Shown here: positions 4,371 to 62,625 of the stretch, piece after piece
How the letters are laid out: every line of letters begins with the position of its first letter
Position numbering within the stretch: the stretch's first letter is position 1
Assembly (NCBI GenBank): GCA_964593055.1
Contig: CAZQIG010000002.1
Coordinates: 28,631 to 92,630, forward strand
Reading direction: 5' to 3'
Length of the DNA: 64,000 bases
DNA from: an uncultured Erysipelotrichia bacterium
Lineage (GTDB): Bacteria > Bacillota_I > Bacilli_A > JBKEDG01
Translations under genes and position numbers: made by a program
The notes under the pieces: model-generated
Told to the model about the DNA's origin: nothing
The model's database searches: none
The model's input: the letters and a program-made list of their open reading frames with translations, nothing else

Positions 4371-4467
4371 GGAAACAAGAAGGTAACTGGTGTGCCTACC
4401 GGTCTTCAAAACCGGATTGCGGCATTAAATTGTCGTGGGTGGGTTCGATTCCCATTTGTTTCCGCCA
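4371..4467 (+). tRNA. selC: tRNA-Sec (selC), anticodon UCA
   Basis: 97 nt, GGAAACAA...TTGTTTCC-G-CCA. It has an 8-bp acceptor stem, a long variable arm, the anticodon loop CUUCAAA (TCA at 4406-4408) and an encoded CCA. It is adjacent to selenoprotein genes. Confidence 0.8.
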
Positions 4468-4512
4468 ATTATAATGATTAAATAAAATTGAATAAATTAA
4501 ATGGAGGTATTT

Positions 4513-5472
4513 ATGGCAGAGCTATATGATTTGATAATCATCGGAGCAGGACCAGCAGGACTATCAGCAGGGCTTTATGCAGGACGCGCAAAACTAAAAA
4601 CATTAATTTTAGAAAAAAAAGCACCAGGTGGTCAAATCGCAACAACACATGAAGTTGCTAATGTTCCAGGATCACTATTTAGTGATGGAAAGACGGCGAC
4701 TACGGGACCTGAATTAACAGCACGTATGGTTGAACAAAGTGATCAATTTGGAGCAGAGCGTGTTAGTGATGAAGTTGTTGAAGTTGATTTCACTAATGAT
4801 ATAAAAGTAGTAAAATGTCGTAAGCAAACATATGAAGCTAGAAGTGTAATTTTAGCTCCAGGTGCTGAGCCACGTAAGTTAGGTGTTTTAGGTGAAGCTG
4901 AGCTGACAGGTAAAGGTGTAAGTTATTGTGCTACTTGTGATGGAGCGTTTTTCACTGATTTAGAAGTATTAGTTGTTGGTGGTGGATACTCAGCAGCAGA
5001 AGAAGGACTGTTCTTAACTAAATTTGCGAGCAAAGTAACAATTTTAGTTCGTGAAGGAGAATTTAGCTGTGCCCAAAGTGTTGTTGATAAAGTACTAGCT
5101 AACGATAAAATCGAAGTACGCTACAATACAGAGATTACCAAAATTACAGGTGATGGTATCGTTGAATCAGCAACGTTGAAAAATAATGTTACTGGTGAAG
5201 AAGAAGAATACATCGTTGATGATGAGTTTGGAACATTTGGAATATTCGTATTCGTAGGATTCGTGCCACAAACAAATGTATTTAAAGATAAAATCACATT
5301 AGATAAATGGGGTTATATTCCAACAAGTGAAGATATGCAAACTGATGTTGCAGGAGTTTATGCAGCAGGTGATGTACGTCCTAAATCATTAAGACAAGTT
5401 GTTACAGCATTAAGTGATGGAGCAATTGCTGCAACAGCTGTTGAAAAATATATTGATGAGAAATTTCACTAA
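4513..5472 (+). CDS. trxB: Thioredoxin reductase
   Basis: The FAD motif GAGPAG and the redox-active CATCDG are present. GGAGG RBS lies 5 nt upstream of ATG 4513. The ORF track start at 4501 is probably upstream of the real start. Confidence 0.85.
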   Translation: MAELYDLIIIGAGPAGLSAGLYAGRAKLKTLILEKKAPGGQIATTHEVANVPGSLFSDGKTATTGPELTARMVEQSDQFGAERVSDEVVEVDFTNDIKVVKCRKQTYEARSVILAPGAEPRKLGVLGEAELTGKGVSYCATCDGAFFTDLEVLVVGGGYSAAEEGLFLTKFASKVTILVREGEFSCAQSVVDKVLANDKIEVRYNTEITKITGDGIVESATLKNNVTGEEEEYIVDDEFGTFGIFVFVGFVPQTNVFKDKITLDKWGYIPTSEDMQTDVAGVYAAGDVRPKSLRQVVTALSDGAIAATAVEKYIDEKFH

Positions 5473-5492
5473 TTTTTAGAAAGGAGGATAAT

Positions 5493-5801
5493 ATGGAACT
5501 ATTAACAAAAGATAATTTTGAAGAAAAAGTTAGCAAGGGAGTTAGTTTAGTTGATTTCTTTAGTGAAAGTTGTGAGCCATGTAAGGCTTTAATGCCACAT
5601 GTTGAAGAAATGGAGAAGAAATATTCTGAAATGCCATTTTATAAGTTAGATACAGCAGGAGCAAGAAGATTAGCAATTAAGTTAAGAGTAATGGGTTTGC
5701 CAACAATAGCAATATTTAAAGATGGTGAGAAAGTTGAAGAACTATCTAAAGATGATGCTACTGTCGAAAATATAGAGGCAATGGTAAAAAAATATTTATA
5801 A
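5493..5801 (+). CDS. trxA: Thioredoxin (CxxC = CEPC), grd-associated
   Basis: 102 aa with a thioredoxin fold, WCEPC-type active site and [11 protein letters not shown]. It lies between trxB and grdA as in clostridial grd clusters. Confidence 0.8.
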
Positions 5802-5818
5802 CAAGAGGAGGCACAAAA

Positions 5819-6289
5819 ATGTTTAGCGGTAAAAAAATTGTGATTATCGGTGACCGTGATGGAATTCCTGGTGAAGCTATTAAAGCATGTGTTGAAACAA
5901 TTGCAGATGCAGAAGTAGTATTCTCTTCTACGGAGTGTTTTGTCTGAACGGCTGCAGGTGCTATGGATTTAGAGAATCAAAAAAGAGTAAAGGAATTTGC
6001 TGAAAACTACGGTCCTGAAAATTTAGTAGTTATTTTAGGAGCTGGTGAAGGAGAAGCAGCAGGTCTTGCTGCTGAAACAGTAACAGTTGGTGATCCAACT
6101 TATGCTGGACCTTTAGCAGGTGTAGAGCTTGGTTTAAATGTTTTCCATGCTGTGGAAGAAGAATTTAAATCAGCAGTTGATTCAAGTGTTTACGAAGAGC
6201 AAGTTGCAATGATGGAAATGGTTTTAAATGTTGATGAAATCGTTTCAGAAATGTCAGAAATTCGTAAATCTGGTAGTAAATTTTTATAA
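5819..6289 (+). CDS. grdA: Glycine/sarcosine/betaine reductase selenoprotein A (GrdA), with in-frame UGA = Sec at 5945-5947
   Basis: ATG 5819 sits after a GAGGAGG RBS. The translation is [15 protein letters not shown]...STECFV-U-TAAGAMD, which matches the conserved GrdA CFVU motif. The downstream ORF 5963-6289 is in the same frame. Confidence 0.85.
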
Positions 6290-6337
6290 ATTCAATAGCA
6301 CATAAAGTGTAGGTTGCACTTTTGAATGGATAGGACA

Positions 6338-6370
6338 AAGAAGAGTGTTAACTCTTCTTTATTATTTAGA
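6338..6370 (+). terminator. Hairpin plus T-tract between grdA and grdC; partial terminator or attenuator
   Basis: AAAGAAGAGT-gtta-ACTCTTCTTT 9-bp stem followed by TTATTATTT. Confidence 0.5.
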
Positions 6371-6388
6371 TTAATTTGGAGGATATTA

Positions 6389-7912
6389 ATGAAAGCAGTT
6401 ATAAAAAATACGGCGTATTGCTTAGTTCATACGCCAGATATGATTATGCATCAAGGGACAACACAAACAACAGAGAAAATTGTAAATCCTGATAGTGAAT
6501 ATTTAAAGCAAATTAATAATCATTTACGTAGTTTTGAAGAAGTTGTTGATTATGCACCAAATCAAGCATATATTGGGAATCTTCATCCAAATGATTTAGC
6601 AAAAATTGAAATGCCATATGTTGGAAAATCAGTTGATGGGAAAAGACAAGGAAAATTTGGAGAAATTTTACCACAGATAGAATTTATTGCACTTTTAAAG
6701 ATTTCAGATGTTTTTGATTTAGTGTTATTAGAAGAAAATTTTGCAAAAGAATGTTTAGAAGCATATAAACAAAATGAAATTGCTTTTGAAGAAGATTTTG
6801 CTAAATTAGAAAATGGTGTAGCATTAAGTGTATTAGAAGAAGAAGTAAAAAATCATGCAGAAGCTATTTATCATGATAATAAGTTAGTAGGATGTGTTAA
6901 AGCTGCTCATGATTTAGATCCTAACTTAAATGCGCACGTTATGTTTGAAAACTTAGTAGTTAAGGCTAGTGGAGTACATGCATTTAGACACTTATTACAT
7001 AAAAATAATATTAATCCACAAATAATTGATTATGTAATTGAATGTAGTGAAGAAGCTTGTGGGGACATGAATCAACGTGGTGGTGGAAACTTTGCTAAGG
7101 CGATCGCTGAAAGTTGTGGAGCAATTAATGCTACAGGTTCAGATTTAAGAGGTTTCTGTGCAGCGCCAACGCATGCATTAATTAGTGCAGCATCTTTAGT
7201 TGCTAGTGGAACACATGATAATGTTGTAGTAGTTGCAGGTGGAGCTACTGCTAAATTAGGAATGAATGGTAAAGATCATATTAAAAAAGAATTACCAATT
7301 TTAGAAGATGTTTTAGGAAGTTTTGCGTTCATGATTTCTAAAAATGATGGTATTAGTCCAATTGTTAGAAATGACATTACTGGAAAACATACTGTTGGAA
7401 CAGGTTCTTCACCACAAGCAGTTATGACATCTCTTGTTTTAGAACCATTACGTGCAGCAGGATTAAAGATTACTGATATCGATAAATATTCTGTTGAAAT
7501 GCAAAATCCTGATATTACTAAACCAGCTGGTGCAGGTGATGTTGCAGAAGCAAATTATAAGATGATTGCAGCATTAGCAGTTATGAATAAAGAGCTAGAT
7601 CGTGCTGATATTAATAGCTTTATTGATCATCACGGAATGAAATCTTGGGCACCAACACAAGGTCATATTCCATCAGGAGTACCTTATTTAGGATTTGCGA
7701 TTGAAGATATGACTACAGGAGATATAAACCGTGCACAAATCATTGGTAAGGGATCATTGTTCTTAGGAAGAATGACAAACTTATTTGATGGTATTAGTGT
7801 TGTTTTAGAAAGAAATAGTGGAGAGTTAGATGAAGAAATTAGTGATGATAAAATCAATAAGCTAATTGCTAAAGCAATGCGTAATTTCGCTGAAAGTTTA
7901 AGTGAGGAATAG
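6389..7912 (+). CDS. grdC: Glycine reductase complex protein C, beta subunit (GrdC), KAS-III-like
   Basis: GGAGG RBS before ATG 6389. The thiolase/KAS-like active-site region GFCAAPTHAL is present. Size (~507 aa) and position after grdA fit. The ORF-track start at 6326 is unlikely. Confidence 0.6.
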   Translation: MKAVIKNTAYCLVHTPDMIMHQGTTQTTEKIVNPDSEYLKQINNHLRSFEEVVDYAPNQAYIGNLHPNDLAKIEMPYVGKSVDGKRQGKFGEILPQIEFIALLKISDVFDLVLLEENFAKECLEAYKQNEIAFEEDFAKLENGVALSVLEEEVKNHAEAIYHDNKLVGCVKAAHDLDPNLNAHVMFENLVVKASGVHAFRHLLHKNNINPQIIDYVIECSEEACGDMNQRGGGNFAKAIAESCGAINATGSDLRGFCAAPTHALISAASLVASGTHDNVVVVAGGATAKLGMNGKDHIKKELPILEDVLGSFAFMISKNDGISPIVRNDITGKHTVGTGSSPQAVMTSLVLEPLRAAGLKITDIDKYSVEMQNPDITKPAGAGDVAEANYKMIAALAVMNKELDRADINSFIDHHGMKSWAPTQGHIPSGVPYLGFAIEDMTTGDINRAQIIGKGSLFLGRMTNLFDGISVVLERNSGELDEEISDDKINKLIAKAMRNFAESLSEE

Positions 7913-7915
7913 GTC

Positions 7916-9085
7916 ATGGGTTTAGAAAATAAAGTTGCAGAAGCTTTCAATAAGATTGCAACGCAAATTGAAACTGGTGATTTCGCTGATAAACTAAAAG
8001 TGGGAGTAACGCTTTTAGGGAGTGAACTTGGTGAAGAAGAAGTTTTACGTGGTGCAGAAGCAGCTGCGAAAGACGGACTATTTGAAGTTGTTGTCATCGG
8101 TAAACCGATAGAAACGAGTTTAGAGTTAATTGAAGTTGCTGATGAAAAAGAAATGCATACTAAAATGGAAGAGCTTTTAGATAGTAAATATCTAGCTGCT
8201 TGTGTTACACTACACTATAGCTTTGCAATCGGTGAGAGTACAATTGGTAAAGTTGTTACACCAGCAAAAGGTAGAGAAATGTATATTGCAACAACAACAG
8301 GAACTAGTGATACTAAAAGAACAATGGCAATGTTAAAAAACACTTTGTATGGAATAGCAGTTGCTAAAGCAGATGGGATTGAGAATCCAGCAGTTGGTAT
8401 TATTAATGTTGATAATGCTAAAACTGTTGAAAGATATTTGAAAAAATTAGCTGCACAAGGATATGCGATTAACTTTGCTGAATCTAAAAGAAGTGATGGT
8501 GGAGTAATAATGCGCGGTAATGATATTTTAATGGGTAGTGTAGATGTCATGGTTACTGATTCACTAACTGGAAATATCTTTATGAAGCTTTTATCTTCAT
8601 TTACAACAGGTGGTAGCTATGAAGCAAGTGGATCGGGATACGGTCCAGGAGTTAATTTTGAGAGTGAGCGTATTATAAATATTATTTCTCGTGCGAGTGG
8701 TGCAGTAGTTATTGCTAATGCAATTAAATATGCGCATACTTTAGCAAAAGGAAATTTACCAAAAGTTTTAAAAGCTGAGTATGAAAAATTACAAGCTGCA
8801 GGTTATACGGATATTTTAGCAGAAATTGAAAAGAAAGAAGCACCAAAGGCAGTAGAAGCTCCTAAAAAAGAAGTTGCTAAAGAAGTAGTTACTGCAGAAA
8901 TTAATGGAATTGATATCATGGATTTAGAAGATGCAGTAGCAGTACTTTTAAATGCAGGTATTTATGCTGAAAGTGGTATGGGTTGTACTGGGCCAATCGT
9001 ATTAGTTAATGATCAAAAATTAGATCAAGCAGTTGCTAAGCTAGCAGAAGCAGAGTTTATCGCACAAGAAGCAACGGGATGTTAA
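7916..9085 (+). CDS. grdD: Glycine reductase complex protein C, alpha subunit (GrdD), PlsX-like
   Basis: 389 aa with a PlsX-like fold (GIINVDNAKTVE...), immediately after grdC. Confidence 0.55.
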   Translation: MGLENKVAEAFNKIATQIETGDFADKLKVGVTLLGSELGEEEVLRGAEAAAKDGLFEVVVIGKPIETSLELIEVADEKEMHTKMEELLDSKYLAACVTLHYSFAIGESTIGKVVTPAKGREMYIATTTGTSDTKRTMAMLKNTLYGIAVAKADGIENPAVGIINVDNAKTVERYLKKLAAQGYAINFAESKRSDGGVIMRGNDILMGSVDVMVTDSLTGNIFMKLLSSFTTGGSYEASGSGYGPGVNFESERIINIISRASGAVVIANAIKYAHTLAKGNLPKVLKAEYEKLQAAGYTDILAEIEKKEAPKAVEAPKKEVAKEVVTAEINGIDIMDLEDAVAVLLNAGIYAESGMGCTGPIVLVNDQKLDQAVAKLAEAEFIAQEATGC

Positions 9086-11890: not shown

Positions 11891-12244
11891 ATGGATAAAA
11901 TAAAACTTCTAAATATAATTAGTGAGAAAACTAGATTTAGAATTATTTGTCTATTAAGAGAAGAAAAAATTTGTGTATGTGAATTACAAGAATTGTTAGA
12001 TATAACACAAGTAGCTGCTTCTAAGCATTTAAAAAGGTTAAAGGAATTTGAAGTAGTTACTGCACAAAAGATAGGAAATAGAATTTTTTATACATTGAAT
12101 GATGATTTATATTGGATTTTTGATGTCATTAATATTATGATTCAAGAAGATAATCAGTTAAAAGAAGAACAAAGATTACTTAAGAATCATTTAGCAATTA
12201 GAGATGATAAGACTTATTCATGTCCGAGTGGTGATCAGCAGTGA
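11891..12244 (+). CDS. ArsR/SmtB-family metal-sensing repressor (CadC-like)
   Basis: 117 aa. The CVCEL metal-binding motif precedes the HTH ([13 protein letters not shown]). Its stop overlaps the ATPase start. Confidence 0.8.
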
Positions 12245-14409
12245 AAAAAGTATTCAAAATTGAAGGTATGACATGTGCTAATTGTGCACAAATTATTAGT
12301 AAAGCTTTTAATGAGAAAAGTGATATAAGTGCGGATGTTAACTTTTCATCAAGTAAGGTTACGGTTAAATATGCTGAAGATACTTATAGTATTAATGATT
12401 TAGAAGCAATTGTTGCTAGTGTTGGTTATAAGTTGATAGTCGATATAGATGAATATGATAGTCTTAGTTTTAAAAAATCGATGAAAAGAAATTTAATTAT
12501 CTCAATTATTTTATCTATTCCCCTTTTAATATCTATGTTAGGTCATTTGAAATGGTTTGATTTTATTTATGTTCCTAGTCTTTTCATGAATGGTGTTTTT
12601 CAGTTGATAGTTGCTTCAGTTATTCAGTTTTATATAGCTAAACAGTTTTATATTTCAGCTTATAAAGGACTTAAAAATAAAGTTTTAGGAATGGATTTAT
12701 TAATTGTTTTAGGAACTAGTGCAGCTTATTTTTATAGTGTATTTTTATTGTATAAACAGCTGTTTATTGAAAAATCGATGCATCCAGAATATTATTTTGA
12801 AATAAGTTCTATTATAATTACGATGGTTTTATTAGGTAATTATATTGAATTTATTGCTAAAGAAAGAACAACTAATGCACTAGGTGATTTAGCTAACTTA
12901 GTACCTAAAAAAGCTCGCTTATTAGTAGATGGTGATGAGAAGTTAGTAGAAACAAGCGATATTATAGCTGATAATTTGATGATTGTTTTAGCTAATGAAA
13001 AGATTCCAGTAGATGGGATTATTGATAAAGGTGATAGTAGTATAGATGAATCTTATTTTACAGGTGAAAGTTTACCTGTTAGTAAAAGTGTGGGAGATTC
13101 TGTCATCGGAGGAACGATAAATTTATCAGAAAGAATTATTGTCAAAGCTACTAGTGTAGGTGAAGATACTGTTTTAGCACAAATAATTCGAACTGTAGAA
13201 GAAGCTTCAAATACAAAACCTCCCATTCAACGTGTTGCTGATAAATTATCATCATACTTTGTGCCAATTATTATTTTAATTGCGATATTAAATTTCATGA
13301 TTCAGTTTTTCTTCTTAGGCTATGATTTTAATATAGTTTTTGCAAGAACAATTGCCATTTTAGTTATTTCATGTCCGTGTGCACTAGGCTTAGCAACCCC
13401 AACATCTATTTTAGTAGGAAATGGATTAGCTGCTAAAAATCATATTTTATATAAAGGCGGAGAATTTTTTGAGCTTGCTAATAAGATAGATGTAATATGT
13501 TTTGATAAAACAGGGACATTGACAGAGGGTAAACCTAATGTAACTGATTATATAGGAAATGATGAAGTTTTACAGTATGCTTTTAGTTTAGAAAAAGAAT
13601 CAACACATCCTATTAGTTTTGCTTTAATAGATTATTGTCAAGATAAAGCTTTTATTAAAAGTGATGTTGAAAAGTTTGAGGTTATTAAAGGTAAAGGTAT
13701 TAAAGGAATAGTTAATGGTAAACAAATCCATATCGGGTCATTAAATTTAATTTTAGATTTAGGTCTTGATTATAGTAAGTATTATCATAAGTATGAAAGT
13801 TTAGTTAATATGGCTAAAACTACAAATTTTATTGTTGTTGATAAAGAGATTAAAGGGTTATATGCTGTACGTGATGATATAAAATCAACTTCAAAAAAAG
13901 CTATTGAAAAAATAAAGGCAAAAGGATTGATTCCGATTATGATTACTGGTGATAATGAAAATGTTGCTGAAGCTATTGCTAAAGAAGTTGGAATTAATGA
14001 ATATTATGCTAATACTTTGCCAAATGATAAAAGTAAAATTATTAAAGATTTGCAAAGTCAAAATCATATAGTTGCTTTTGTTGGTGATGGTATAAATGAT
14101 GCACCTGCATTAAAAGTATCTGATATTGGTATTGCCATGGGTCATGGTACAGATATAGCAATTAATTCAAGTGATGTAACACTTATGAGTCATAATTTAG
14201 AACTCGTAGTAACAGCAATAAACATTTCTCAAGCAACTTTAAAAAATATTTATCAAAATTTCTTTTGGGCATTTTCTTATAATTTAGTAGCAGTACCACT
14301 TGCAGCGGCCGGATTCTTATCAATGGTTTTGGCAGCAGGGGCGATGGGATTTTCTTCGATAATGGTTGTTTTAAATGCTCTTAGGTTAAAAAAGAAAAAA
14401 GTTGATTGA
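12241..14409 (+). CDS. Heavy-metal translocating P1B-type ATPase (CPC motif; Cd/Zn/Pb type)
   Basis: HMA domain [11 protein letters not shown] in the TM6 region ([11 protein letters not shown]), [15 protein letters not shown]. Confidence 0.9.
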
Positions 14410-14433: not shown

Positions 14434-14970
14434 ATGAATAAGAAAATTGTTTTTGGAATAATAGCAATTATATTGTTTTTTGTAGGTATTTTTGCTCTTG
14501 ATCCTAAGGAATATAGTAATTTAAAAAAGTTTGTTGAAGAAAATGATGTAAGAACGGTTGTCGCTAAACTAGAAAATGGTGAGGTTGAAGAATTAAATGG
14601 TGTTGCTTATCCTAATTATATAGAAGTAAGTAATGAAAGAGAAACAGTAGTTTTAGAAGACGATAATAATGAATTTTATGTATCAATAGCTCCATATTTT
14701 GATACAACCCATTCATGAACTATTCATTATTTGACAGGATGTCAAGGTGAATTAAAAAATTATGAATTAAATGTTGTTATTAAAACTATTGATGGTAGAG
14801 TACTATATGATGGTAAAAAGACAACTTATAGTAATGGATTTATGGGATTTTGGTTACCAAGAAACGTGGAAGCAATTATTGAGTTAGAAAGTGAAGGCAA
14901 GGTAGGTGTTTATGCACTATCAACATTTAGTGATAGCCCTACTTGTATTACAACCTTTCAATTAAAATAA
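14434..14970 (+). CDS. Membrane-anchored hypothetical protein split by one in-frame TGA (14716-14718); candidate selenoprotein, otherwise a nonsense pseudogene
   Basis: ORFs 14434-14718 and 14731-14970 are in the same frame and separated only by TGA. A hairpin TTGACA-GGA-TGTCAA begins 12 nt after the TGA. The organism decodes Sec (selC and grdA are in this window). Confidence 0.35.
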
Positions 14971-42762: not shown

Positions 42763-43128
42763 ATGCGAAGCTTAAAAGAAGGAAGTATTATAGTAGTTAA
42801 AGTAAAAAGTATTAAAAAATATGGGTTCTTTGTTAGTATAAATGAAGAGCTCGATGGTCTAGTACACATCTCTGAAATATCGGATAATTATGTAAAATCA
42901 ATTACAAAATTTGTTGAAGTAGGTGAAGTTATTTTAGCGAGGGTTGTCACGTATAGACAAGGTAAAATGAATCTTTCTATCAAGAATATGAATTATAAAT
43001 TACGCAAGACTTGTGTTAGATATTTAGAAGGTGACTATGTAGTAGATGAAAATTTTACCACAATTAAAGCTAAGCTTGGATTGTGGATAAAGGAGTATGA
43101 AAGAAATGATGAAATTAGTAAACGCTAA
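42763..43128 (+). CDS. S1 RNA-binding domain protein (general stress protein 13-like)
   Basis: 121 aa; S1 fold GSIIVVKVKSIKKYGFFVSI...GLVHISEIS. Confidence 0.7.
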   Translation: MRSLKEGSIIVVKVKSIKKYGFFVSINEELDGLVHISEISDNYVKSITKFVEVGEVILARVVTYRQGKMNLSIKNMNYKLRKTCVRYLEGDYVVDENFTTIKAKLGLWIKEYERNDEISKR

Positions 43129-43537
43129 TGAAGTAAAAGAAGTTTCAATTGAACAGTTGCATAATCAAAAAACAGTACTGTTTTTTTATCCAAAAGCTAA
43201 TACGCCAGGTTGAGTAGTAGAAGCTACAGACTTTTCCGGGTTGAAGAGTGAGTTTTTGGCTAGAGGATATCAGTTAATCGGTGTGAGCCGTGATAGTGTT
43301 AAAGCACAGCAAAATTTTATTGCTAAAAGAGAATTGACGATTGATTTGATTGCTGATGTTGATAGTGAGTTATGTACTTATTTTGAAGTATTGAAAGAAA
43401 AAAATATGTTTGGTAAATCATACATTGGAATTGAACGTTCGACATTTGTATTAGATGAAAACTTTCAGATTATTAAGGAATATCGCAAGATAAAAGTTGC
43501 AGGACACGCTAAAGAAGTTTTAGAAAATTTAAATTAA
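43106..43537 (+). CDS. Bcp/PrxQ-type peroxiredoxin with in-frame UGA (43211-43213) replacing the peroxidatic Cys; predicted selenoprotein
   Basis: ATG 43106 gives MMKLVNANEVKEVSIEQLHNQKTVLFFYPKANTPG-U-VVEATDFSGLKSEFLARGYQLIGVSRDS..., against the canonical FYPKDxTPGCTxE. It is in frame with the annotated ORF 43241-43537. A G.U-containing hairpin CTTTTC-cgggtt-GAAGAG starts 17 nt after the UGA. Confidence 0.6.
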
Positions 43538-43556
43538 GAGCGAAGGCTCTTTTTCT
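43537..43556 (+). terminator. Short hairpin plus T-tract after the peroxiredoxin gene
   Basis: AGAGC-gaag-GCTCT followed by TTTTC. Confidence 0.4.
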
Positions 43557-43581: not shown

Positions 43582-46122
43582 ATGGAAAAAATTGTAATTG
43601 TTGATGGATTTAATTTCTTGTTTCGTAGTTATTTTGCGACTGCTAGTACGGGAATGCGAAATTCTAAAGGATTTCCAACTAATGCATTGTATGCTTATCA
43701 TACGATGTTAACAAAGTTGATTACTGAAGAAAATCCCGATTACATGGTTGTTGTCATGGATAGTGGGAAAACTTTTAGGCATGATAGTTATCCCTTATAT
43801 AAAGCTCATCGTAAAGAAGCTCCTTTGGAGTTAAAGCAGCAAATTCCAAAAGCTGAAACAATGTTGAAGGGATTAGGAATTAGTGCACTTAGTTATGATG
43901 GGTATGAAGCTGATGATATTGCGGGAAGTTTAGCGAAAAAATATCAAGGTGAATATGAAGTTTTATTAGTTACTAGTGATCAAGATTATTTGCAGTTAGT
44001 TGATAAAAATACGACTGTTAAGCTGCTAAAAGCAAAAGATTTCAATTATTTTGATGAGCGTAAATTATTTGATGAATATGGCTTAAAGCCTAAGCAAATT
44101 ATTGATTTGAAAGCTTTAGAAGGTGATAAAAGCGATAATATTCCAGGAGTTAGTGGAATTGGGATTGTTGGGGCTAAGAAATTATTAAGTGAGTATTGTG
44201 ATATAGAGAGTATTTATGAAAACCTTGAAGAAATTAAGGGTAAAATTCAAGAAAAGTTAAGAGTTAATAAAGAAAATGCTTTTTTAAGTAAAGAGTTAGC
44301 AACGATTTATTGTGATTTAGAACTTGATTATAATTTAAATGAGTTTAAGATTAATAGGGATGAGAAATTATTACATGACTTTTATAAAGAAATGGAGTTT
44401 GCTTCATTTGTAAAAAGTGTGCAACAAGTAGAAGATATAGCGTATGAATTTGCTAATAGTTTAGATGTGATTACTGAAAATAGTGCTATTTATGTTGATT
44501 ATTATGGTAATTATTATGATAAAGAAGTCTTAGGAATTGGTGTATATGATGGAGAAAATGCTTACTATATTACAAAAGAAGTCCTTTATGCTAATTTAGA
44601 ACAATTAAACAAGGTGAAGAATTTTAGTTGTTATGACTATAAACGTTTATATATGACTTTTTCTGGTGAAGTTGGGGAGAGTAATTTTGATTTGTCAATT
44701 GCACATTACATTTTGGATTACAAAGCTAAAGAGATAAGTGAAATTGGTCTTAAGTTTGACATTTTATTAAAAAGTAATGAAGAGCTTTATGGAAAAGGTA
44801 AAAAGTATCATTATCCTGATGAAGAGCTCTTACAAAAAGAAGCTGTTAAAAAGGCTAAATTGATATTTGATTATAAGAAAATTTATTTAAAAGAGTTGGA
44901 AGAGCATCAAATAATGCAATTATATTATGAAATAGAATTACCTCTAGCTAAAGTTTTAGCTAAAATGGAGCTTGTAGGAATCAAAGTAGATGTCCATTTT
45001 CTACGAGAACTTGGCAAAGATCTCGATGTGCAGCTTGAAAAATTAGAAAAGCGCATTTTTGAGCTTGCAAAAGAAGAATTCAAAATCAACTCTTATAAAC
45101 AGCTCGGTGTAATATTATTTGAAAAACTAGCGATTCCATATCCGAAAAAAAATGCTAAAAGCTATTCGACATCTGTTGATATTTTAGAAAAAATTAAAAC
45201 AAAGCACGAAATTGTTCCACTTATTTTAGAGTATCGTCAAATAGCAAAAATTAATAGCACATATGTCAAAGGACTAATCAGCTATGTTTTTGATGATGAA
45301 CGCATTCATACTATTTTTCAACATACGAAAGTAGCTACGGGAAGACTTTCTTCTATTGAACCTAATTTGCAAAACATTTCTGTTAGAACAGAGCTTGGAA
45401 GAGAAATACGTAAGGCTTTTGTAGCAGATAATCAACTGTTTGCATGTGATTATTCACAAATAGAATTACGTGTTTTAGCACATTTAAGTGAAAATGAGCA
45501 TTTACTAGAAGCTTTCAATGAAAAGATAGATATTCATACGAAAACTGCTAGTGATGTTTATGGAATTGCACTTGATGAAGTTACTCCAGAAATGCGTCGA
45601 ATAGCTAAGGCAGTTAATTTTGGAATTATTTATGGTCAAAGAGAATTTGGGTTAAGCGAGAATTTAGGTATTGAAATATATGAGGCTAAACAGTTTATCG
45701 ATGATTATTTTATAAAATATGCTGGTGTTAAAAAATATTTAGAAGATGTTGTTGCTGAAGCGACAAAAAAAGGTTATACGACAACTATTTTTAAACGTCT
45801 TAGATATATTGAAGAATTAAAGAGTAATAACTTCATGCAAAAACAGTTAGGTGAAAGATTAGCGATGAATACGCCTATTCAAGGAAGTGCTGCGGATATT
45901 ATTAAGTTAGCGATGGTAAAAATAGATGATGCTTTTGAAATGCAAAAAATTAAATCAAAGATGATTTTACAAGTGCATGATGAATTGATTTTTGATATAA
46001 TAGAGGGCGAAGAAAAGCTTGTTGAAGATATAGTTGTAGAGATTATGGAAAATTGTTTGAAATTAAAAGTACCATTAGTCGTAGAAGCTAAATTTGGGAA
46101 AAGATGGTACGACGCAAAGTAG
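43582..46122 (+). CDS. polA: DNA polymerase I
   Basis: 5'-3' exonuclease N-terminus and Pol A motifs (DYSQIELR, QVHDELIF). GGAGG RBS before ATG 43582. Confidence 0.95.
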   Translation: MEKIVIVDGFNFLFRSYFATASTGMRNSKGFPTNALYAYHTMLTKLITEENPDYMVVVMDSGKTFRHDSYPLYKAHRKEAPLELKQQIPKAETMLKGLGISALSYDGYEADDIAGSLAKKYQGEYEVLLVTSDQDYLQLVDKNTTVKLLKAKDFNYFDERKLFDEYGLKPKQIIDLKALEGDKSDNIPGVSGIGIVGAKKLLSEYCDIESIYENLEEIKGKIQEKLRVNKENAFLSKELATIYCDLELDYNLNEFKINRDEKLLHDFYKEMEFASFVKSVQQVEDIAYEFANSLDVITENSAIYVDYYGNYYDKEVLGIGVYDGENAYYITKEVLYANLEQLNKVKNFSCYDYKRLYMTFSGEVGESNFDLSIAHYILDYKAKEISEIGLKFDILLKSNEELYGKGKKYHYPDEELLQKEAVKKAKLIFDYKKIYLKELEEHQIMQLYYEIELPLAKVLAKMELVGIKVDVHFLRELGKDLDVQLEKLEKRIFELAKEEFKINSYKQLGVILFEKLAIPYPKKNAKSYSTSVDILEKIKTKHEIVPLILEYRQIAKINSTYVKGLISYVFDDERIHTIFQHTKVATGRLSSIEPNLQNISVRTELGREIRKAFVADNQLFACDYSQIELRVLAHLSENEHLLEAFNEKIDIHTKTASDVYGIALDEVTPEMRRIAKAVNFGIIYGQREFGLSENLGIEIYEAKQFIDDYFIKYAGVKKYLEDVVAEATKKGYTTTIFKRLRYIEELKSNNFMQKQLGERLAMNTPIQGSAADIIKLAMVKIDDAFEMQKIKSKMILQVHDELIFDIIEGEEKLVEDIVVEIMENCLKLKVPLVVEAKFGKRWYDAK

Positions 46123-57134: not shown

Positions 57135-57163
57135 TTGACAGCATTAATATAAAATGTGATAAT
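57135..57163 (+). promoter_or_regulatory. Near-consensus sigma-A promoter for the effector gene (TTGACA-17-TGtGATAAT)
   Basis: -35 TTGACA at 57135-57140 and extended -10 TGnGATAAT at 57155-57163. This places ATG 57156 inside the promoter, so the real start is ATG 57222 after the GTGGGGGGA RBS. Confidence 0.55.
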
Positions 57164-57221
57164 GAAAATATATTTTAAAGACTACTTATGTTATCAAAAA
57201 ATTTTAAAGTGGGGGGATTTA

Positions 57222-60200
57222 ATGAGAATAACTAAGCAAAAGTGGTACTGTGTTAGTGGTGTAGAAAATGAGCTGTTTTACGACAAGTATAATAGAAGAT
57301 ATTTTTATTTAAAAGAAAATAATCAAAGGTGTGTAATTGATAAAAACGATTTTTACATACAATTAAAAACAAGAGGGAATAGTCAAAATAAAGAGTTTAA
57401 TATTCTAAAAAAGAAAAATATTTACAAAAAAGATATGTCTAGTTATAAAAAACTTGAAGAAAAAATAGATTTCAAAAGTAAAACTAAACTATATTTTAAA
57501 AGAGGTGGAAAATATTCTGAAATTTATGATAATGAAAAACAGTTAGCAGTAAATCGTCATAATTTTATTTGTGATATTAATAGTATTCATAACGAATTTT
57601 TAAAAGAAACTATGAAGCATGAAAAAGTTGATGAAGATATCTGTAATAATTTTACCGATAAATATTTTAATGTAATTGACAAATATACGAAAGAAAGTGA
57701 AGAAGTTATAAGTGATAAAGCGTTACGCGATTCAAGGTCTGTATCTATTTCAAAGATTTTGAAGCATAATGAAAAATCTTTAATAAATAGATTTGGAACA
57801 AGAGCTATTGAATGTGAAATTCAATTAGCAAAATCAATTATTAATTTTCATAAGAAACAGAAGCTTTCCAAAAAACTGAATGAATTTTATACAGAATTAA
57901 CTAAAGAATATAACAGAAGTATGAAAAGATATGGATTAACTTCTAAAAATTCAAAAAGTAATAGAAATGATATTATTGAAAGTTTGAATTATAATAAAAT
58001 TTTAGAGATTAGTACATTTAATGATTTAAAAAATAAAATCGGTGTAGTAATTGAAGCTTATGACTTATCTAAATTATGTGTAAAAATTATTGATAATAAA
58101 GCAACATATTATAAAGAGTTTAAAAATCCTAATGGAAAAAATAATATTAAATATACTTTATTTGATGACATAAGAAAACATTATCAAGACACCTTTAAAA
58201 ATTTTGATGAAAAAATGAAAGACACTATTAATAATAGCTGTTTAATTGTTAAAGAAAATGAATATAAATTTGTTTTGAAGTATGTTCATAATTATGTATT
58301 AGGTAGAGCAAGAAAAATAAAAAAATATGTTGAAAGTAAAGATTTAGAACTTGAGGATGACTTTATTGAAAAGGCTTTTGAACACAAGAAATTAAAAACA
58401 AAAATAGAAAATAGGGTTCTTTCTACTTTTAATACTCAACTGAATAGTATGAAAAAAGAAAAAGCCTTAGATTTGACTGAAAATCTAGAAAAAGAAATTG
58501 GGTTGCAGTTAGCAAAAATTCAAGATACGTATTCTAATAAATTAAATAATTTAATTTACGAAACAGTATACAAATTTTTATCTTCCATCGATAGAAAAAA
58601 TGATATATTGGGAGCAAGTGAATTATGTGACTTAAAGAAGGATATAGGAGAAACAAAATTTGAAAGTAATAAAGAACTATATATATCAGCATATTTGTTG
58701 AGAAACTATACAATTCATTACCAAAATTTTGATAAACAAAATGAAATTAGAGATGATAATGCTTTTAGTTTGAAAAATTATTGCCCCAAGTCATCAGTAG
58801 ATAAAATAAGCAAATATGTTGTGTCACAGTTTGAGTATAATAATACATTTAAATATATTGATAATAATATATTTAAAAAATCAATAGACTTACTTCAATT
58901 AAATCATATTAAGGATTTAATATTTCCAAGGTTTGATAAAATTTTCAAACTTATAGTAAATGATAAAAATTTTAAATGTTTTGAGCCTAAATTATTTTTT
59001 GATTTAAATGATGAGTTTAAATTTTGTTATAAATACTTATTGAATAGAATTTATTCACAGGGATTTGCAACAAACACTGATAAAACTAAAAATTACCTTG
59101 AAAAAAAACAGCAATTTATGAACGAGTGTCATGGTAATGTAGTAATGGTAGAAAAACAAATAATTGAGCTTATTGCTCAAGATTTTATAGAATATTTATC
59201 TGATAATAAGATTGAATTTAATTTGAATGATGATTTTGATAAATGTAATATAGATGAAAATAAAAGATACTTAGAATTAAAGTTAAAGAAATTTGAATTT
59301 TCAGATTATAATTCAATTAAAGATTCAAATGATTTTATTATTAGTATATATCATCTAGGAATTAATGCAACAGTTGAAATATTGAGTGAGTTATTGCAAA
59401 ATACTATAAAATATAAGTCCCTTTTAATAAGTTTGAAAGAAAAGTATAAAGAAGAGCATAAGATTTTTTTAGAAGCTTTCCAAAAAGTAACTCGATTTAA
59501 TGAAGAATTTTATACTAGTATTGAGTGTTATTTGAGCGAATTTGAGAAATTAATAAAAATATTAAAAAATGAATTGATGATTAAAAATTATGATTTAAAT
59601 AGTAATTTAAATTGTCATAATAAATTCGAGAGTGAATTATTGAAAATTTTCAATAAAAATAGCAGGGTAGAATTTAAAAGTCTTGATGAAGTAAAATATC
59701 AAAAAGCGAATAAAAATAATGAAAGTATTGAAGTGAATCTTTGGAAACCAGAAAGTAAAACTAAAAATGTTGATATAATAAACAATAAGTTTTTAATTAG
59801 AGAGTATACTAATGGAACACTAAAGTTCAGCTTAGATTTACATACTCATTGTATGAAAGAAACAAAATTGTACTATAATGAAATTATTGCTGAAATAAAT
59901 ACGTTTAATAAAACTATATCTAGGGATGATTTATTAGAAAATAAAGATTTGATAGATACAATTATGGGTTCTAAAGATAATCATAAGCAATTTGAAAGTA
60001 TGTCTAGAATAGTATATTATCAAAAAATGAGGCAATTAATCCAGGGTAAATATAAAGAGCTTTATAACGAAGCAAAAATGAATAATAAAAATAGGAGAAT
60101 TTTATACTCGGATATTTTTAAAGATAATAAAGAATTAGTAAATAAAACAAGCGCAATTCACAAAGAAGCAAGTGATGGAATAAATAAGTATAATTTTTAT

Positions 60201-60683
60201 ATGAACTTGCTTAAACTTACTACAATTAGTAAAATTAAAAAATATAATAGTGAGTTTCATGCAAGGTTTATGTCTTGGATATTTCAAGGTGAAAAATTTG
60301 CTGGCAATATTTATAATACTAAAAAACCTATTGGGCAATTATTGTCGAAAAGGTCTATTGATTCAAATAATAATTTGAATCAATTTAGAAATGACATTGC
60401 TCACTTGAATAATTTTCAAGAAAATAATAAAAGCTCTAAAAGCTATAGTGACTATATAGATGATATCAAAAGATATAACTCGTATAGTACTATGAAAAGA
60501 AAAGAGGTATCTATTGTTATTGATAAAATTAGAACAAAGTATTTAGCTTCTAATGATAATATACACAAAGTTTTTAATAAAAAAAATGGGTATGAGTGTG
60601 ATTTAAATAACAATAGTGCTGAAGAAGTAAAATATTATTTGGAATTTGAAAAATTTAATTGGGATAGATCAAACAATGTCTAA
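57222..60683 (+). CDS. cas13a: Type VI-A CRISPR effector Cas13a (C2c2)-like, RNA-guided RNase with two HEPN R-x4-H motifs
   Basis: ~1153 aa, Lys/Asn-rich, with no RuvC or HNH signatures. RNYTIH is at codons 494-499 (nt 58701-58718). RNDIAH is at codons 1056-1061 (nt 60387-60404). cas1-cas2 and a co-oriented array with a Leptotrichia-Cas13a-like repeat lie directly downstream. Confidence 0.85.
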   Translation: MRITKQKWYCVSGVENELFYDKYNRRYFYLKENNQRCVIDKNDFYIQLKTRGNSQNKEFNILKKKNIYKKDMSSYKKLEEKIDFKSKTKLYFKRGGKYSEIYDNEKQLAVNRHNFICDINSIHNEFLKETMKHEKVDEDICNNFTDKYFNVIDKYTKESEEVISDKALRDSRSVSISKILKHNEKSLINRFGTRAIECEIQLAKSIINFHKKQKLSKKLNEFYTELTKEYNRSMKRYGLTSKNSKSNRNDIIESLNYNKILEISTFNDLKNKIGVVIEAYDLSKLCVKIIDNKATYYKEFKNPNGKNNIKYTLFDDIRKHYQDTFKNFDEKMKDTINNSCLIVKENEYKFVLKYVHNYVLGRARKIKKYVESKDLELEDDFIEKAFEHKKLKTKIENRVLSTFNTQLNSMKKEKALDLTENLEKEIGLQLAKIQDTYSNKLNNLIYETVYKFLSSIDRKNDILGASELCDLKKDIGETKFESNKELYISAYLLRNYTIHYQNFDKQNEIRDDNAFSLKNYCPKSSVDKISKYVVSQFEYNNTFKYIDNNIFKKSIDLLQLNHIKDLIFPRFDKIFKLIVNDKNFKCFEPKLFFDLNDEFKFCYKYLLNRIYSQGFATNTDKTKNYLEKKQQFMNECHGNVVMVEKQIIELIAQDFIEYLSDNKIEFNLNDDFDKCNIDENKRYLELKLKKFEFSDYNSIKDSNDFIISIYHLGINATVEILSELLQNTIKYKSLLISLKEKYKEEHKIFLEAFQKVTRFNEEFYTSIECYLSEFEKLIKILKNELMIKNYDLNSNLNCHNKFESELLKIFNKNSRVEFKSLDEVKYQKANKNNESIEVNLWKPESKTKNVDIINNKFLIREYTNGTLKFSLDLHTHCMKETKLYYNEIIAEINTFNKTISRDDLLENKDLIDTIMGSKDNHKQFESMSRIVYYQKMRQLIQGKYKELYNEAKMNNKNRRILYSDIFKDNKELVNKTSAIHKEASDGINKYNFYMNLLKLTTISKIKKYNSEFHARFMSWIFQGEKFAGNIYNTKKPIGQLLSKRSIDSNNNLNQFRNDIAHLNNFQENNKSSKSYSDYIDDIKRYNSYSTMKRKEVSIVIDKIRTKYLASNDNIHKVFNKKNGYECDLNNNSAEEVKYYLEFEKFNWDRSNNV

Positions 60684-61572
60684 TACAATATTTGTAAAGC
60701 AAGGTAGTAAGTTAAAAATTAGCGATGCAAATTTGTGTGTAGAAGTAGATAGTGAGTATAACTTAATCCCATTTAATGAAATAGAAATAATAATTATTGA
60801 AAATTTGAGATGTAGTATAACTGCAAGCGTTATAGTCGAATGTAGTATGAAAGGCATTCCAATAATATATTGTAATAATAAGCATACACCAGTTGCGACA
60901 ACAGATAGCTTATATTCTTACCATAGGCAAACCAAAAAGATACAAGAACAAATGTTATGGACTACTATTAGAAAAGAAAGACTATTTGTAAAAATTGTTG
61001 AAAGAAAAATTAAAAATCAATGTAATCTTTTGAAGTACATATATGATGATATAGATGAAAAATATTTTGAAGAAAAAATACGATCATTAAATAAAGAAAA
61101 TGTATTGAGTGTAGAAGCACAAGTTGCAAAGAAATACTTTAATAACTTGTATGGCTCAGAATTCAAAAGACATGAAAAAGATTATCCAAACTTTCTTTTG
61201 AATTATGGCTATGCTATAATTAGAAGCAAGATAAGACAAGTTATTGTAAGTAAAGGATTACATCCATCACTTGGAATAATGCATAACAATCAATTTAACA
61301 ACTATAATTTAAGTGATGATATTATCGAAGTTTATAGACCATTAATTGATTACTATGTGCATGTTATTTTAAAATCAAGTTTTGAAGAAAGCCAAGCAAA
61401 AAACATTTTACAAGGTCTATTATTTCAAAGAGTGATGTATGATGGAGTGGAAACAGGAGTAAGGTTGAGTATAGAGCTATTTGTAGATGGCATAATTAAG
61501 TATATGAATAAATCTAATAAGGAAATAGTAATGCCCATTTTGGAGGTTGATATGTATGAGCTCCAAATATAA
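60676..61572 (+). CDS. cas1: CRISPR integrase Cas1
   Basis: The Cas1 C-terminal signature NYGYAIIRSKIRQVIVSKGLHPSLGIMHNNQFNNYNLSDDIIEVYRPLIDYYV is present. It overlaps the cas13a stop. An alternative TTG start is at 60646. Confidence 0.85.
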   Translation: MSNTIFVKQGSKLKISDANLCVEVDSEYNLIPFNEIEIIIIENLRCSITASVIVECSMKGIPIIYCNNKHTPVATTDSLYSYHRQTKKIQEQMLWTTIRKERLFVKIVERKIKNQCNLLKYIYDDIDEKYFEEKIRSLNKENVLSVEAQVAKKYFNNLYGSEFKRHEKDYPNFLLNYGYAIIRSKIRQVIVSKGLHPSLGIMHNNQFNNYNLSDDIIEVYRPLIDYYVHVILKSSFEESQAKNILQGLLFQRVMYDGVETGVRLSIELFVDGIIKYMNKSNKEIVMPILEVDMYELQI

Positions 61573-61879
61573 AACAATTTTATTTTATGATTTTGCGTGT
61601 AGGACAAAGAAGGAGAAAAGGGAGTTTCAAAGATTTAATAAAGGAATAAAAAAGCTTGGATTTATGATGATACAAAAATCAGTATATGTAAGAAGCATTA
61701 AAAGCAAGGAAGAGTATGCAAATATAAAAGCTAGAATAATGATAAGAGAGAATAATAACAATGATATAAGAATAGTGCTTTTAACTAATTCAAAGTATGA
61801 AGAGATAGAGATGATATCAGGACAAGAAACCTTAACAGATATGGTATTGACAAGCAAAAAAAATGTAATTAATTTATAA
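61556..61879 (+). CDS. cas2: CRISPR adaptation protein Cas2
   Basis: ~107 aa, MSSKYKTILFYDFACRTKKEKREFQRFNKGIKKLGFMMIQKSVYV (Cas2 beta1-alpha1-beta2 pattern). GGAGG RBS. It overlaps the cas1 end. Confidence 0.75.
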   Translation: MSSKYKTILFYDFACRTKKEKREFQRFNKGIKKLGFMMIQKSVYVRSIKSKEEYANIKARIMIRENNNNDIRIVLLTNSKYEEIEMISGQETLTDMVLTSKKNVINL

Positions 61880-61984
61880 GAAGTACTTAAAATTCGAAAC
61901 TATTTTCTAAAAAAAAAGAAAAAACAGTATTTGAAATACCAAAAACGTTGTTATATCAATAAAAAAATATGTTATATGTTTGCG
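61880..61984 (+). promoter_or_regulatory. CRISPR leader (A/T-rich, ~105 bp) between cas2 and the first repeat
   Basis: The A-rich stretch contains TTGAAA and TATGTTATAT promoter-like boxes. The degenerate repeat lies at the far end of the array, so this end is leader-proximal. Confidence 0.5.
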
Positions 61985-62625
61985 GATTTATTACACCCCA
62001 AAAACGAAGGGGACTAAAACCGTAGGAAGTGTTGGGTTAAAACCAACAGTATGATTTATTACACCCCAAAAACGAAGGGGACTAAAACTTTTGTTGAATC
62101 GCTTCTATTATAATACTCTCTGATTTATTACACCCCAAAAACGAAGGGGACTAAAACGTTTAGTAAGAATTTTGTTAATTGTGGTACGGATTTATTACAC
62201 CCCAAAAACGAAGGGGACTAAAACATTCCTGGACACCTCTTATTATAGTAAAAAGATTTATTACACCCCAAAAACGAAGGGGACTAAAACGGGATAATAT
62301 TCTCATCATTAATCGCGATAATGATTTATTACACCCCAAAAACGAAGGGGACTAAAACTGAATATTGGTCATAAAGTGAATCGAACACTGATTTATTACA
62401 CCCCAAAAACGAAGGGGACTAAAACACGGTTTGGAATTTATTGCTTTGGTTAGTTGATTTATTACACCCCAAAAACGAAGGGGACTAAAACTATAAGTTT
62501 TATTTTCGTTATTTATTATTTTGATTTATTACACCCCAAAAACGAAGGGGACTAAAACTGTAGCAATGACTTTTTTCCCATCAACTCCAGATTTATTACA
62601 CCCCCAAGAGGTATTAGAATATTAA
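61985..62625 (+). CRISPR. CRISPR array: 9 identical 36-nt repeats (GATTTATTACACCCCAAAAACGAAGGGGACTAAAAC) plus 1 degenerate terminal repeat; 9 spacers of 30-33 nt
   Basis: Repeat starts are at 61985, 62053, 62122, 62189, 62255, 62323, 62390, 62456 and 62523. The degenerate repeat starts at 62590 (GATTTATTACACCCCCAAGAGG...). Each repeat has an internal CCCC...GGGG stem. Confidence 0.95.

Follow-up and report, generated by a model that had tools for sequence, protein, structure and literature searches.

An in-frame UGA at the peroxidatic position of a Bcp/PrxQ-like peroxiredoxin gene points to a selenoprotein in a low-GC uncultured bacterium

Introduction

A TGA triplet that interrupts an otherwise open frame could be read in several ways: as a nonsense mutation that has killed the gene, as a tryptophan (Trp) codon of a variant genetic code, as an error of sequencing or assembly, or as a codon for selenocysteine (Sec). 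The question of which of these applies is raised by a putative peroxiredoxin gene, here called Sec-Bcp, in a 64-kb stretch of DNA from an uncultured bacterium (GenBank contig CAZQIG010000002.1), which is referred to below as the window. A first-pass annotation, made from the sequence of the window alone, had proposed that this gene encodes a Sec-containing peroxiredoxin and that standard gene calling had mistaken it for a shorter protein. The follow-up analysis reported here shows that the UGA sits at the catalytic cysteine (Cys) position of an otherwise intact and selectively constrained gene, and the segment 43106-43537 is very probably a genuine Sec-encoding gene.

Reading frame and protein family

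A single frame runs from ATG 43106 to TAA 43535-43537 with only one in-frame TGA, at 43211-43213 (translation: MMKLVNANEVKEVSIEQLHNQKTVLFFYPKANTPG*VVEATDFSGLK...ENLN); another possible start is ATG 43109. The coordinates of the start, of the TGA and of the open reading frame (ORF) with which this frame is continuous, 43241-43537, had been given correctly in the first-pass annotation.

For the family searches, Cys was put in place of the stop at residue 36. The resulting protein matched the Pfam family AhpC-TSA (PF00578) over residues 7-122 (1e-25; 90.5 bits, cut-off 26) and was also matched by Pfam Redoxin. The top NCBIfam families were Bcp (NF006960, 104.9 bits) and PrxQ (NF053650, 94.9 bits); the equivalog cut-offs of 140 and 260 bits, respectively, were not reached, and on these similarities the protein is best described as Bcp/PrxQ-like and as an equivalog of neither curated model. 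The best match among solved structures was Bcp of Xanthomonas campestris (3.5e-37), continuous over residues 23-141. This protein (PDB 3GKK, 3GKM, 3GKN and 5IIZ series) is an atypical 2-Cys BCP/PrxQ, and it has in common with Sec-Bcp the segments FYPK-x-x-TPG-[C/U], GVSRDSV, KEKNM-GK, GIERSTF and KV-GHA. The UGA codon (residue U36) aligns to its peroxidatic Cys48, and Pro29, Thr33 and Arg111 (the last within GIERSTF) are kept. Both the assignment to the Bcp/PrxQ type and the placing of the UGA at the peroxidatic position, where other homologues have Cys, had been put forward from the sequence of the window alone, and both are borne out by the family matches and the alignment to the Xanthomonas protein.

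The canonical resolving Cys is absent at both of its positions, in that Thr41 occupies the position five residues after U36 and Ile72 occupies that of the resolving Cys84 of the Xanthomonas protein. Such a lack of Cys at Thr41 and Ile72 would make the protein a '1-Sec' enzyme, and the two residues are consistent with a predicted 1-Cys-type (1-Sec) member of the family; this is plausible, not certain. A further Cys, Cys90, lies 3' of U36, is kept in all six members of the clade and aligns to a further Cys in the Xanthomonas protein. The earlier claim that no resolving Cys follows the UGA thus holds for the two canonical positions and fails for Cys90, and the label of a 1-Sec enzyme, which is right in that the canonical resolving Cys is lacking, had been given with more certainty than a conserved Cys90 allows.

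Conservation of the UGA and selection on the gene

Database searches returned five orthologues (56-99% identity) that are recorded with Trp at the position of the UGA, together with two truncated calls. At the level of DNA, TGA was found at that codon in six of six distinct orthologous sequences (56-71% identity), the frame being otherwise uninterrupted in each. More distant homologues carry Cys at this position, so that the alignment with Bcp/PrxQ relatives suggested in the first-pass annotation as a check gave the pattern of TGA in the orthologues and Cys further away. The identical gene, including its TGA, was present in two independent assemblies made from different samples of the same organism (L122, from Logan SRR15291766, and L123, from NCBI GCA_019826185.1); GCA_019826165.1 is a further assembly in which this sequence occurs.

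Constraint on the encoded protein is equally strong on the two sides of the TGA. The ratio of non-synonymous to synonymous substitution rates (dN/dS) was 0.1-0.3 for the 34 codons upstream and also for the 106 codons downstream, which indicates that both flanking halves are kept as protein. Among the orthologues the proportion of differing synonymous sites (pS) was 0.34-0.87, and synonymous sites are near saturation. A stop shared by close relatives and followed by a degraded downstream part had been named beforehand as the pattern that would speak against a selenoprotein. The opposite was observed: the stop is conserved and the part downstream of it is under purifying selection.

A conserved hairpin downstream of the UGA

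The first-pass annotation had pointed to a 6-bp hairpin at 43231-43248, after the UGA, as a possible selenocysteine insertion sequence (SECIS) element. The hairpin is real, grows to 7 bp when its arms are extended (Table 1) and is conserved in the orthologues, which show after the UGA the consensus 5'-A[C/U]UUUUC-CGGGUU-GAA[G/A]A[G/A]U-3'. Its loop begins 23 nt after the UGA. When the six orthologues were folded together with RNAalifold, this 7-bp hairpin was the sole consensus structure, and its pairing was kept in 42 of 42 cells (100%) of the stem alignment, as compared with 50-64% in slid controls. One pair of the stem covaries (C-G, U-G and U-A), coupling a synonymous change in an Asp codon to a Ser/Asn change. 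Identity at third codon positions was 0.80 over the hairpin and 0.51 for the gene as a whole; the seven stretches of the gene that score highest in this respect all overlap the hairpin. The codons conserved within it include some that are rare in the genome, TCC, GGG and TTG making up 2%, 10% and 16% of their codon families. This constraint on synonymous sites is stronger evidence for the hairpin than the covariation is.

A wider comparison comprised 33 Sec-type and 58 Cys-type homologues. The motif GRGUU followed the codon in 32 of the 33 Sec-type genes and in 9 of the 58 Cys-type genes. The mean z-score of downstream folding against shuffled sequences was -1.02 for the Sec-type and -0.33 for the Cys-type genes (Mann-Whitney p = 2e-4, for sequences that are not phylogenetically independent). 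In the published model of bacterial SECIS (bSECIS) elements, an apical loop of 3-9 nt closes a stem of 4-16 bp, a G stands at loop position 1 or 2, the loop lies 16-37 nt from the UGA and the minimum free energy (MFE) is -7.5 kcal/mol or lower (PMC13188914). The hairpin of Sec-Bcp agrees with this model in its loop of 6 nt, its stem of 7 bp, its G at loop position 2, after which comes another G, and its spacing of 23 nt; its energy is taken up below. A different candidate at 43239-43261 (9-bp stem, GUGAG loop), which is favoured in the MFE fold of the window, is not conserved, was not recovered by RNAalifold and was rejected.

Selenocysteine decoding in the window

If the UGA is read as Sec, the genome has to provide for it, and a group of genes on the forward strand at 4371-9085 is relevant here. 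It comprises, in this order, a gene for tRNA-Sec, which is the only tRNA with a UCA anticodon that was found, trxB, trxA, grdA, grdC (DUF5940) and grdD (FA_synthesis). The Sec codon of grdA is a canonical one, and this gene is a positive control for the reading of UGA as Sec within the same window. Together, tRNA-Sec and the Sec-containing grdA support the prediction that this genome decodes Sec. Neither grdB nor grdE is present in the window, so that the substrate-specific component, selenoprotein B, either has its gene in another part of the genome or is absent. The products of trxA and trxB would be the likely reductant system of Sec-Bcp.

The features of the two regions are collected in Table 1. 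The start of the Sec-Bcp coding sequence overlaps the 3' end of an upstream gene for an S1-domain protein (42763-43128). A scan with the terminator consensus gave two sites, where 0.2 were expected.

Table 1. Positions in the window of Sec-Bcp, its associated elements and the genes related to Sec decoding and thiol reduction.
Feature	Position	Strand	Remarks
tRNA-Sec, anticodon UCA	4371-4467	+	ARAGORN call tRNA-SeC; Rfam RF01852, full length, 71.5 bits (gathering threshold 47)
trxB, thioredoxin reductase	4513-5472	+	FAD/NAD motifs; function read from sequence
trxA, thioredoxin	5493-5801	+	C-E-P-C replaces the usual C-G-P-C; function read from sequence
grdA, glycine reductase selenoprotein A	5819-6289	+	canonical Sec codon UGA at 5945-5947
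Shine-Dalgarno-like AAGGAG	43090-43095	+	10 nt 5' of ATG 43106; read from sequence
Sec-type Bcp/PrxQ coding sequence, full length	43106-43537	+	143 codons including U36
Predicted Sec codon UGA, residue 36	43211-43213	+	peroxidatic site in P29-x3-T33-x2-U36
SECIS-like hairpin	43230-43249	+	arms 43230-43236 ACUUUUC and 43243-43249 GAAGAGU, loop 43237-43242 CGGGUU
Terminator-like hairpin AAGAGC-GAAG-GCUCUU with T-run	43536-43556	+	overlaps the Sec-Bcp stop codon

Alternative explanations

Several explanations that do without Sec have to be weighed. That the lineage uses genetic code 4, in which UGA specifies Trp as in Mycoplasma and Spiroplasma, might be suggested by the Trp recorded at the UGA position in the five database orthologues (P0001, P0002 and P0004-P0006), by the adjacent polA gene, whose nearest named relatives are 'Mollicutes' and 'Tenericutes' assemblies, and by the 29% GC of the genome. 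Within the window, however, 9 of 48 long ORFs end in TGA, none of the long genes, such as the one for the 846-aa PolA, has it internally, and Trp is encoded 50 times by TGG. On the contigs of the relatives, no in-frame TGA other than the Bcp codon is conserved, and TGG is used elsewhere; the sole extra TGA, in L001, aligns to a Leu codon (TTA) in L007. Code 4 is rejected on the basis of this stop-codon usage, TGG usage and the contigs of the relatives, and is regarded as very improbable. Two further points tell against it: the only tRNA with a UCA anticodon that was found is a bona fide tRNA-Sec, and an enzyme with Trp as its peroxidatic residue would be catalytically dead, which does not fit the purifying selection seen on the gene. 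The extra TGA of L001 is codon 202 of a gene for a 960-aa RND/SecDF-like transporter (L001:1350-4229) that adjoins the Sec-Bcp orthologue; its most likely origin is a mistake of assembly or a nonsense mutation of recent date, and not recoding. The glutathione peroxidase genes found near the orthologues in L003 and L004 are ordinary Cys forms.

TGA is one substitution away from either Cys codon, and gene callers give only fragments of Sec-Bcp. A Cys-type bcp gene could, then, have been killed by a change of TGT or TGC to TGA, leaving at most the 98-aa downstream ORF to be translated. Such a pseudogene is discounted because both halves are maintained as protein: the TGA is shared by six orthologues that at 56-71% identity are not copies of one assembly, and dN/dS is low on either side of it. 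The gene also has no frameshifts and no further stops, the TGA is followed by a conserved RNA hairpin, and a 98-aa fragment would be devoid of the entire active-site motif; there seems to be hardly any likelihood of a dead gene. A single-base error in place of TGT or TGC, which is conceivable in any metagenome-derived sequence, is excluded by the identity of the TGA in the two independent assemblies, with TGA in all divergent orthologues besides, and its probability is close to nil.

An explanation of another kind accepts that the UGA is read through and supposes that the residue inserted is mostly not Sec, being Cys carried by tRNA-Sec under selenium limitation or Trp or Cys from a near-cognate tRNA. 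The enzyme would then be effectively a Cys-type peroxiredoxin with regulated, low-level expression. The observations that weigh against Sec insertion are best gathered at this point. The hairpin taken alone has a folding energy of -5.6 kcal/mol in the window, -5.5 in L003 and -3.2 in L001, all above the -7.5 kcal/mol threshold of the bSECIS model, and it is in this low stability of the hairpin in the AU-rich clade that the RNA evidence is weakest. The 49-nt region of the window reaches -11.0 kcal/mol, but does so only through an unconserved lower stem. Folds of single sequences were no better than those of shuffled ones (z -0.5 to -1.2), and the covariation is confined to one pair in six sequences and was not significant in column shuffles (102 of 500). 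A search of the window and of the 10 kb upstream gave no selA, selB or selD, which, like the weak hairpin, speaks for this explanation. Recycling by a 1-Sec mechanism, finally, is made less certain by Cys90, which is kept across the clade. Against readthrough without Sec stand the presence in the same window of tRNA-Sec and of grdA, for which Sec is a strict requirement, the loop of the hairpin, which shows the G-G/U signature known from SECIS elements that bind SelB and is held by rare codons, and the alternation of UGA and Cys, which in the peroxiredoxin family is an established selenoprotein pattern (PMC1794560, PMC13188914). Predominantly non-Sec readthrough is quite unlikely, and insertion of Sec is the reading adopted in what follows.

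Relation to known Sec-containing peroxiredoxins

Sec-containing peroxiredoxins are an established family. They have been listed as COG1225 (Bcp) with the motif TxxU (PMC9312934) and as PF00578 / TxxU with a 'highly conserved PxxxTxxU motif' (PMC13188914). In 2006, Zhang et al. counted 12 members that had arisen by five Cys-to-Sec events (PMC1794560), and in 2016 Peng et al. counted 91 proteins in 78 organisms, which made the family the seventh most widespread among bacterial selenoproteins (PMC5029168). Its founding member, which was verified by experiment, is PrxU from Eubacterium acidaminophilum (Sohling et al. 2001, cited by PMC9312934 and PMC13188914), and the first-pass annotation was right in naming this protein. 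The host of PrxU is an amino-acid-fermenting anaerobe that uses glycine reductase, and the window likewise carries grdA, grdC, grdD, trxB and trxA.

Sec-Bcp is a member of this family and forms within it a distinct low-GC clade. It has the PF00578 domain, the P-x3-T-x2-U motif with U as the peroxidatic residue, common Cys-containing homologues and a bSECIS-like element directly downstream. Repeated and independent conversion of Cys to Sec is also a property of the family: in a rough neighbour-joining tree, four separate all-Sec clades are nested among Cys forms, with Cys-type proteins as the nearest outgroups of the clade of the window, and five events were reported previously (PMC1794560). 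Other Sec-containing peroxiredoxins have U-T-x-E-A where this clade has U-V-V/Y-E-A. Compared with Sec-Bcp of Acidobacteriota, this clade has a distance between UGA and GGGUU apex that is longer by 9 nt, and its 7-bp hairpin is weaker and AU-rich. It also differs from the surveyed hosts of the family in coming from a low-GC lineage that looks Mollicutes-like.

The extent of the switch was assessed among the genome loci listed as matches, which do not include the lineage of the window itself. Among 80 such loci, at least 18 had TGA and at least 57 had a Cys codon at the peroxidatic position, and the TGA-type loci listed belong to Acidobacteriaceae/Terriglobales, Bryobacteraceae and a Bacillota metagenome-assembled genome (MAG). 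TGA was found at the same codon in about 10 metagenome contigs as well. Outside the clade, TGA thus stands at this codon in no fewer than 28 bcp genes of other phyla. The TGA-type loci (L014, L044 and L056-L086 among genomes; L088, L089, L092, L100, L101, L106, L110, L116 and L119 among metagenomes, unnamed high-GC contigs included) show a GC-rich hairpin after the TGA, for example GCGCGCGG-GUU-CCGCG(A)CGC, with a GGGUU or GAGUU apex about 15 nt after the UGA. A scan of JGI metagenomes with the pattern N-T-P-G-TGA-V-x-E-A returned high-GC Sec-Bcp genes and chance matches only, and none from the clade of the window.

Sec-Bcp and the many genes of Acidobacteriota illustrate the frequency with which Cys has given way to Sec in Bcp. 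The clade described here, with its AU-rich SECIS element, is a distinct addition to a known selenoprotein family.

Proposed mechanism

By analogy with the established route of Sec insertion in bacteria, SelB loaded with Sec-tRNA(Sec) would bind the CGGGUU apical loop while the UGA occupies the A site of the ribosome, and Sec would be inserted at this codon instead of chain termination. The predicted product is a Bcp/PrxQ-type peroxiredoxin of 143 residues that has a thioredoxin fold and Sec as its peroxidatic residue. From what is known of peroxiredoxin chemistry, the selenolate of U36 would be placed by Pro29, Thr33 and Arg111 and would attack the hydroperoxide, becoming a selenenic acid. The latter would most probably be reduced back directly by thioredoxin, a TrxA/TrxB pair being encoded in the window; a selenenylsulfide between U36 and the conserved Cys90 is a candidate alternative for the recycling step.

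Mis-annotation of the gene

All the public calls found for Sec-Bcp are wrong, the gene being either split into pieces of 35 and 93 aa (NCBI and Logan records; L122 and L123) or translated with Trp in place of Sec. A mechanical ORF list of the window contains the downstream part alone (98 aa, TTG start). The prediction of the first-pass annotation that a caller restricted to the standard code would truncate the gene is in accord with the split records and with this list. Trp is placed at the Sec codon in P0001, P0002 and P0004-P0006 for Bcp and in P0245 and P0246 for CueP, the protein considered in the following section. These calls are best explained by gene callers having chosen the Mycoplasma-type code-4 model for low-GC contigs. 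The artefact is systematic for selenoproteins of AT-rich uncultured bacteria, and the mistranslation will spread into protein databases and family profiles.

A probable Sec-containing CueP

A second gene of the window, at 14434-14970 on the forward strand and downstream of a gene for a CopA-type ATPase (12241-14406), is interrupted in frame by a TGA at 14716-14718, and its product is CueP-like, CueP being a periplasmic protein that binds copper. When the TGA is read through, the ORF matches the whole Pfam CueP domain with 5e-40, as opposed to 1e-4 for the fragment. TGA was present at the same codon in two orthologues (L124:1394-1933 and L126:419-952), which use TGG for Trp in the same gene, and Cys in a third orthologue and in Salmonella CueP (PDB 4GQZ), the motif being C/U-x7-C. 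In each case the TGA is followed by a hairpin whose apex is GGA or GGU. Only three Sec-type CueP sequences were found. To judge from this pattern of TGA and Cys, 14434-14970 probably encodes a Sec-containing CueP. CueP is not mentioned in two reviews of selenoproteomes (PMC9312934, PMC13188914), in which it could be listed under another name.

Lineage and selenium use

With tRNA-Sec, genes for glycine reductase and three genes recoded at UGA, all in 64 kb, this low-GC bacterium is marked as a user of selenium. The window has a GC content of 28.9%, is read with the standard code and shows the Bacilli-like gene order polA-fpg-coaE-dnaB(DnaD-like)-dnaI. The nearest relative of PolA (43582-46122) is 60% identical, and its named relatives, at 46-49% identity, are only MAGs labelled 'Mollicutes bacterium', 'Tenericutes' or 'Mycoplasmatota'. 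A Mollicutes-like placement of the lineage is weakly indicated.

Mollicutes have been stated to lack the selenium utilisation trait (PMC1794560, PMC5029168, PMC9312934), and in surveys they appear without SelD and Sec. The use of selenium would be notable if the Mollicutes-like placement were confirmed. It is possible, if somewhat doubtful, that the window comes from a deep-branching lineage affiliated with Mollicutes (Mycoplasmatota-like) that keeps UGA as a stop and Sec codon, with a small selenoproteome of GrdA, Sec-Bcp and Sec-CueP. Were this so, it would be the first Sec-using relative of a group in which UGA later became a Trp codon, and would be relevant to the question of what made this change of code possible; Sec-Bcp itself would stay a member of a known family.

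Other observations

Two further features of the window were recorded. A locus of clustered regularly interspaced short palindromic repeats (CRISPR) and associated cas genes extends over 57153-62590 on the forward strand and consists of a 1176-aa ORF, Cas1 (60631-61569), a Cas2-like ORF and an array at about 61985-62590 with at least nine copies of the 36-nt repeat GATTTATTACACCCCAAAAACGAAGGGGACTAAAAC. The 1176-aa ORF had no sequence match in Pfam or PDB; the HEPN-like motif R-N-x3-H occurs in it twice (residues 517 and 1079). The repeat matches what we take to be the Cas13a repeat of Leptotrichia at 32 of 36 positions. These characters suggest that the locus may be a divergent type VI-A (Cas13a-like) system. 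Elsewhere in the window, a 405-aa ORF at 1968-3185 on the forward strand encodes, according to Pfam, a prolipoprotein diacylglyceryl transferase (LGT) fused to a C-terminal NUDIX hydrolase domain, and this combination of LGT and NUDIX domains is unusual.

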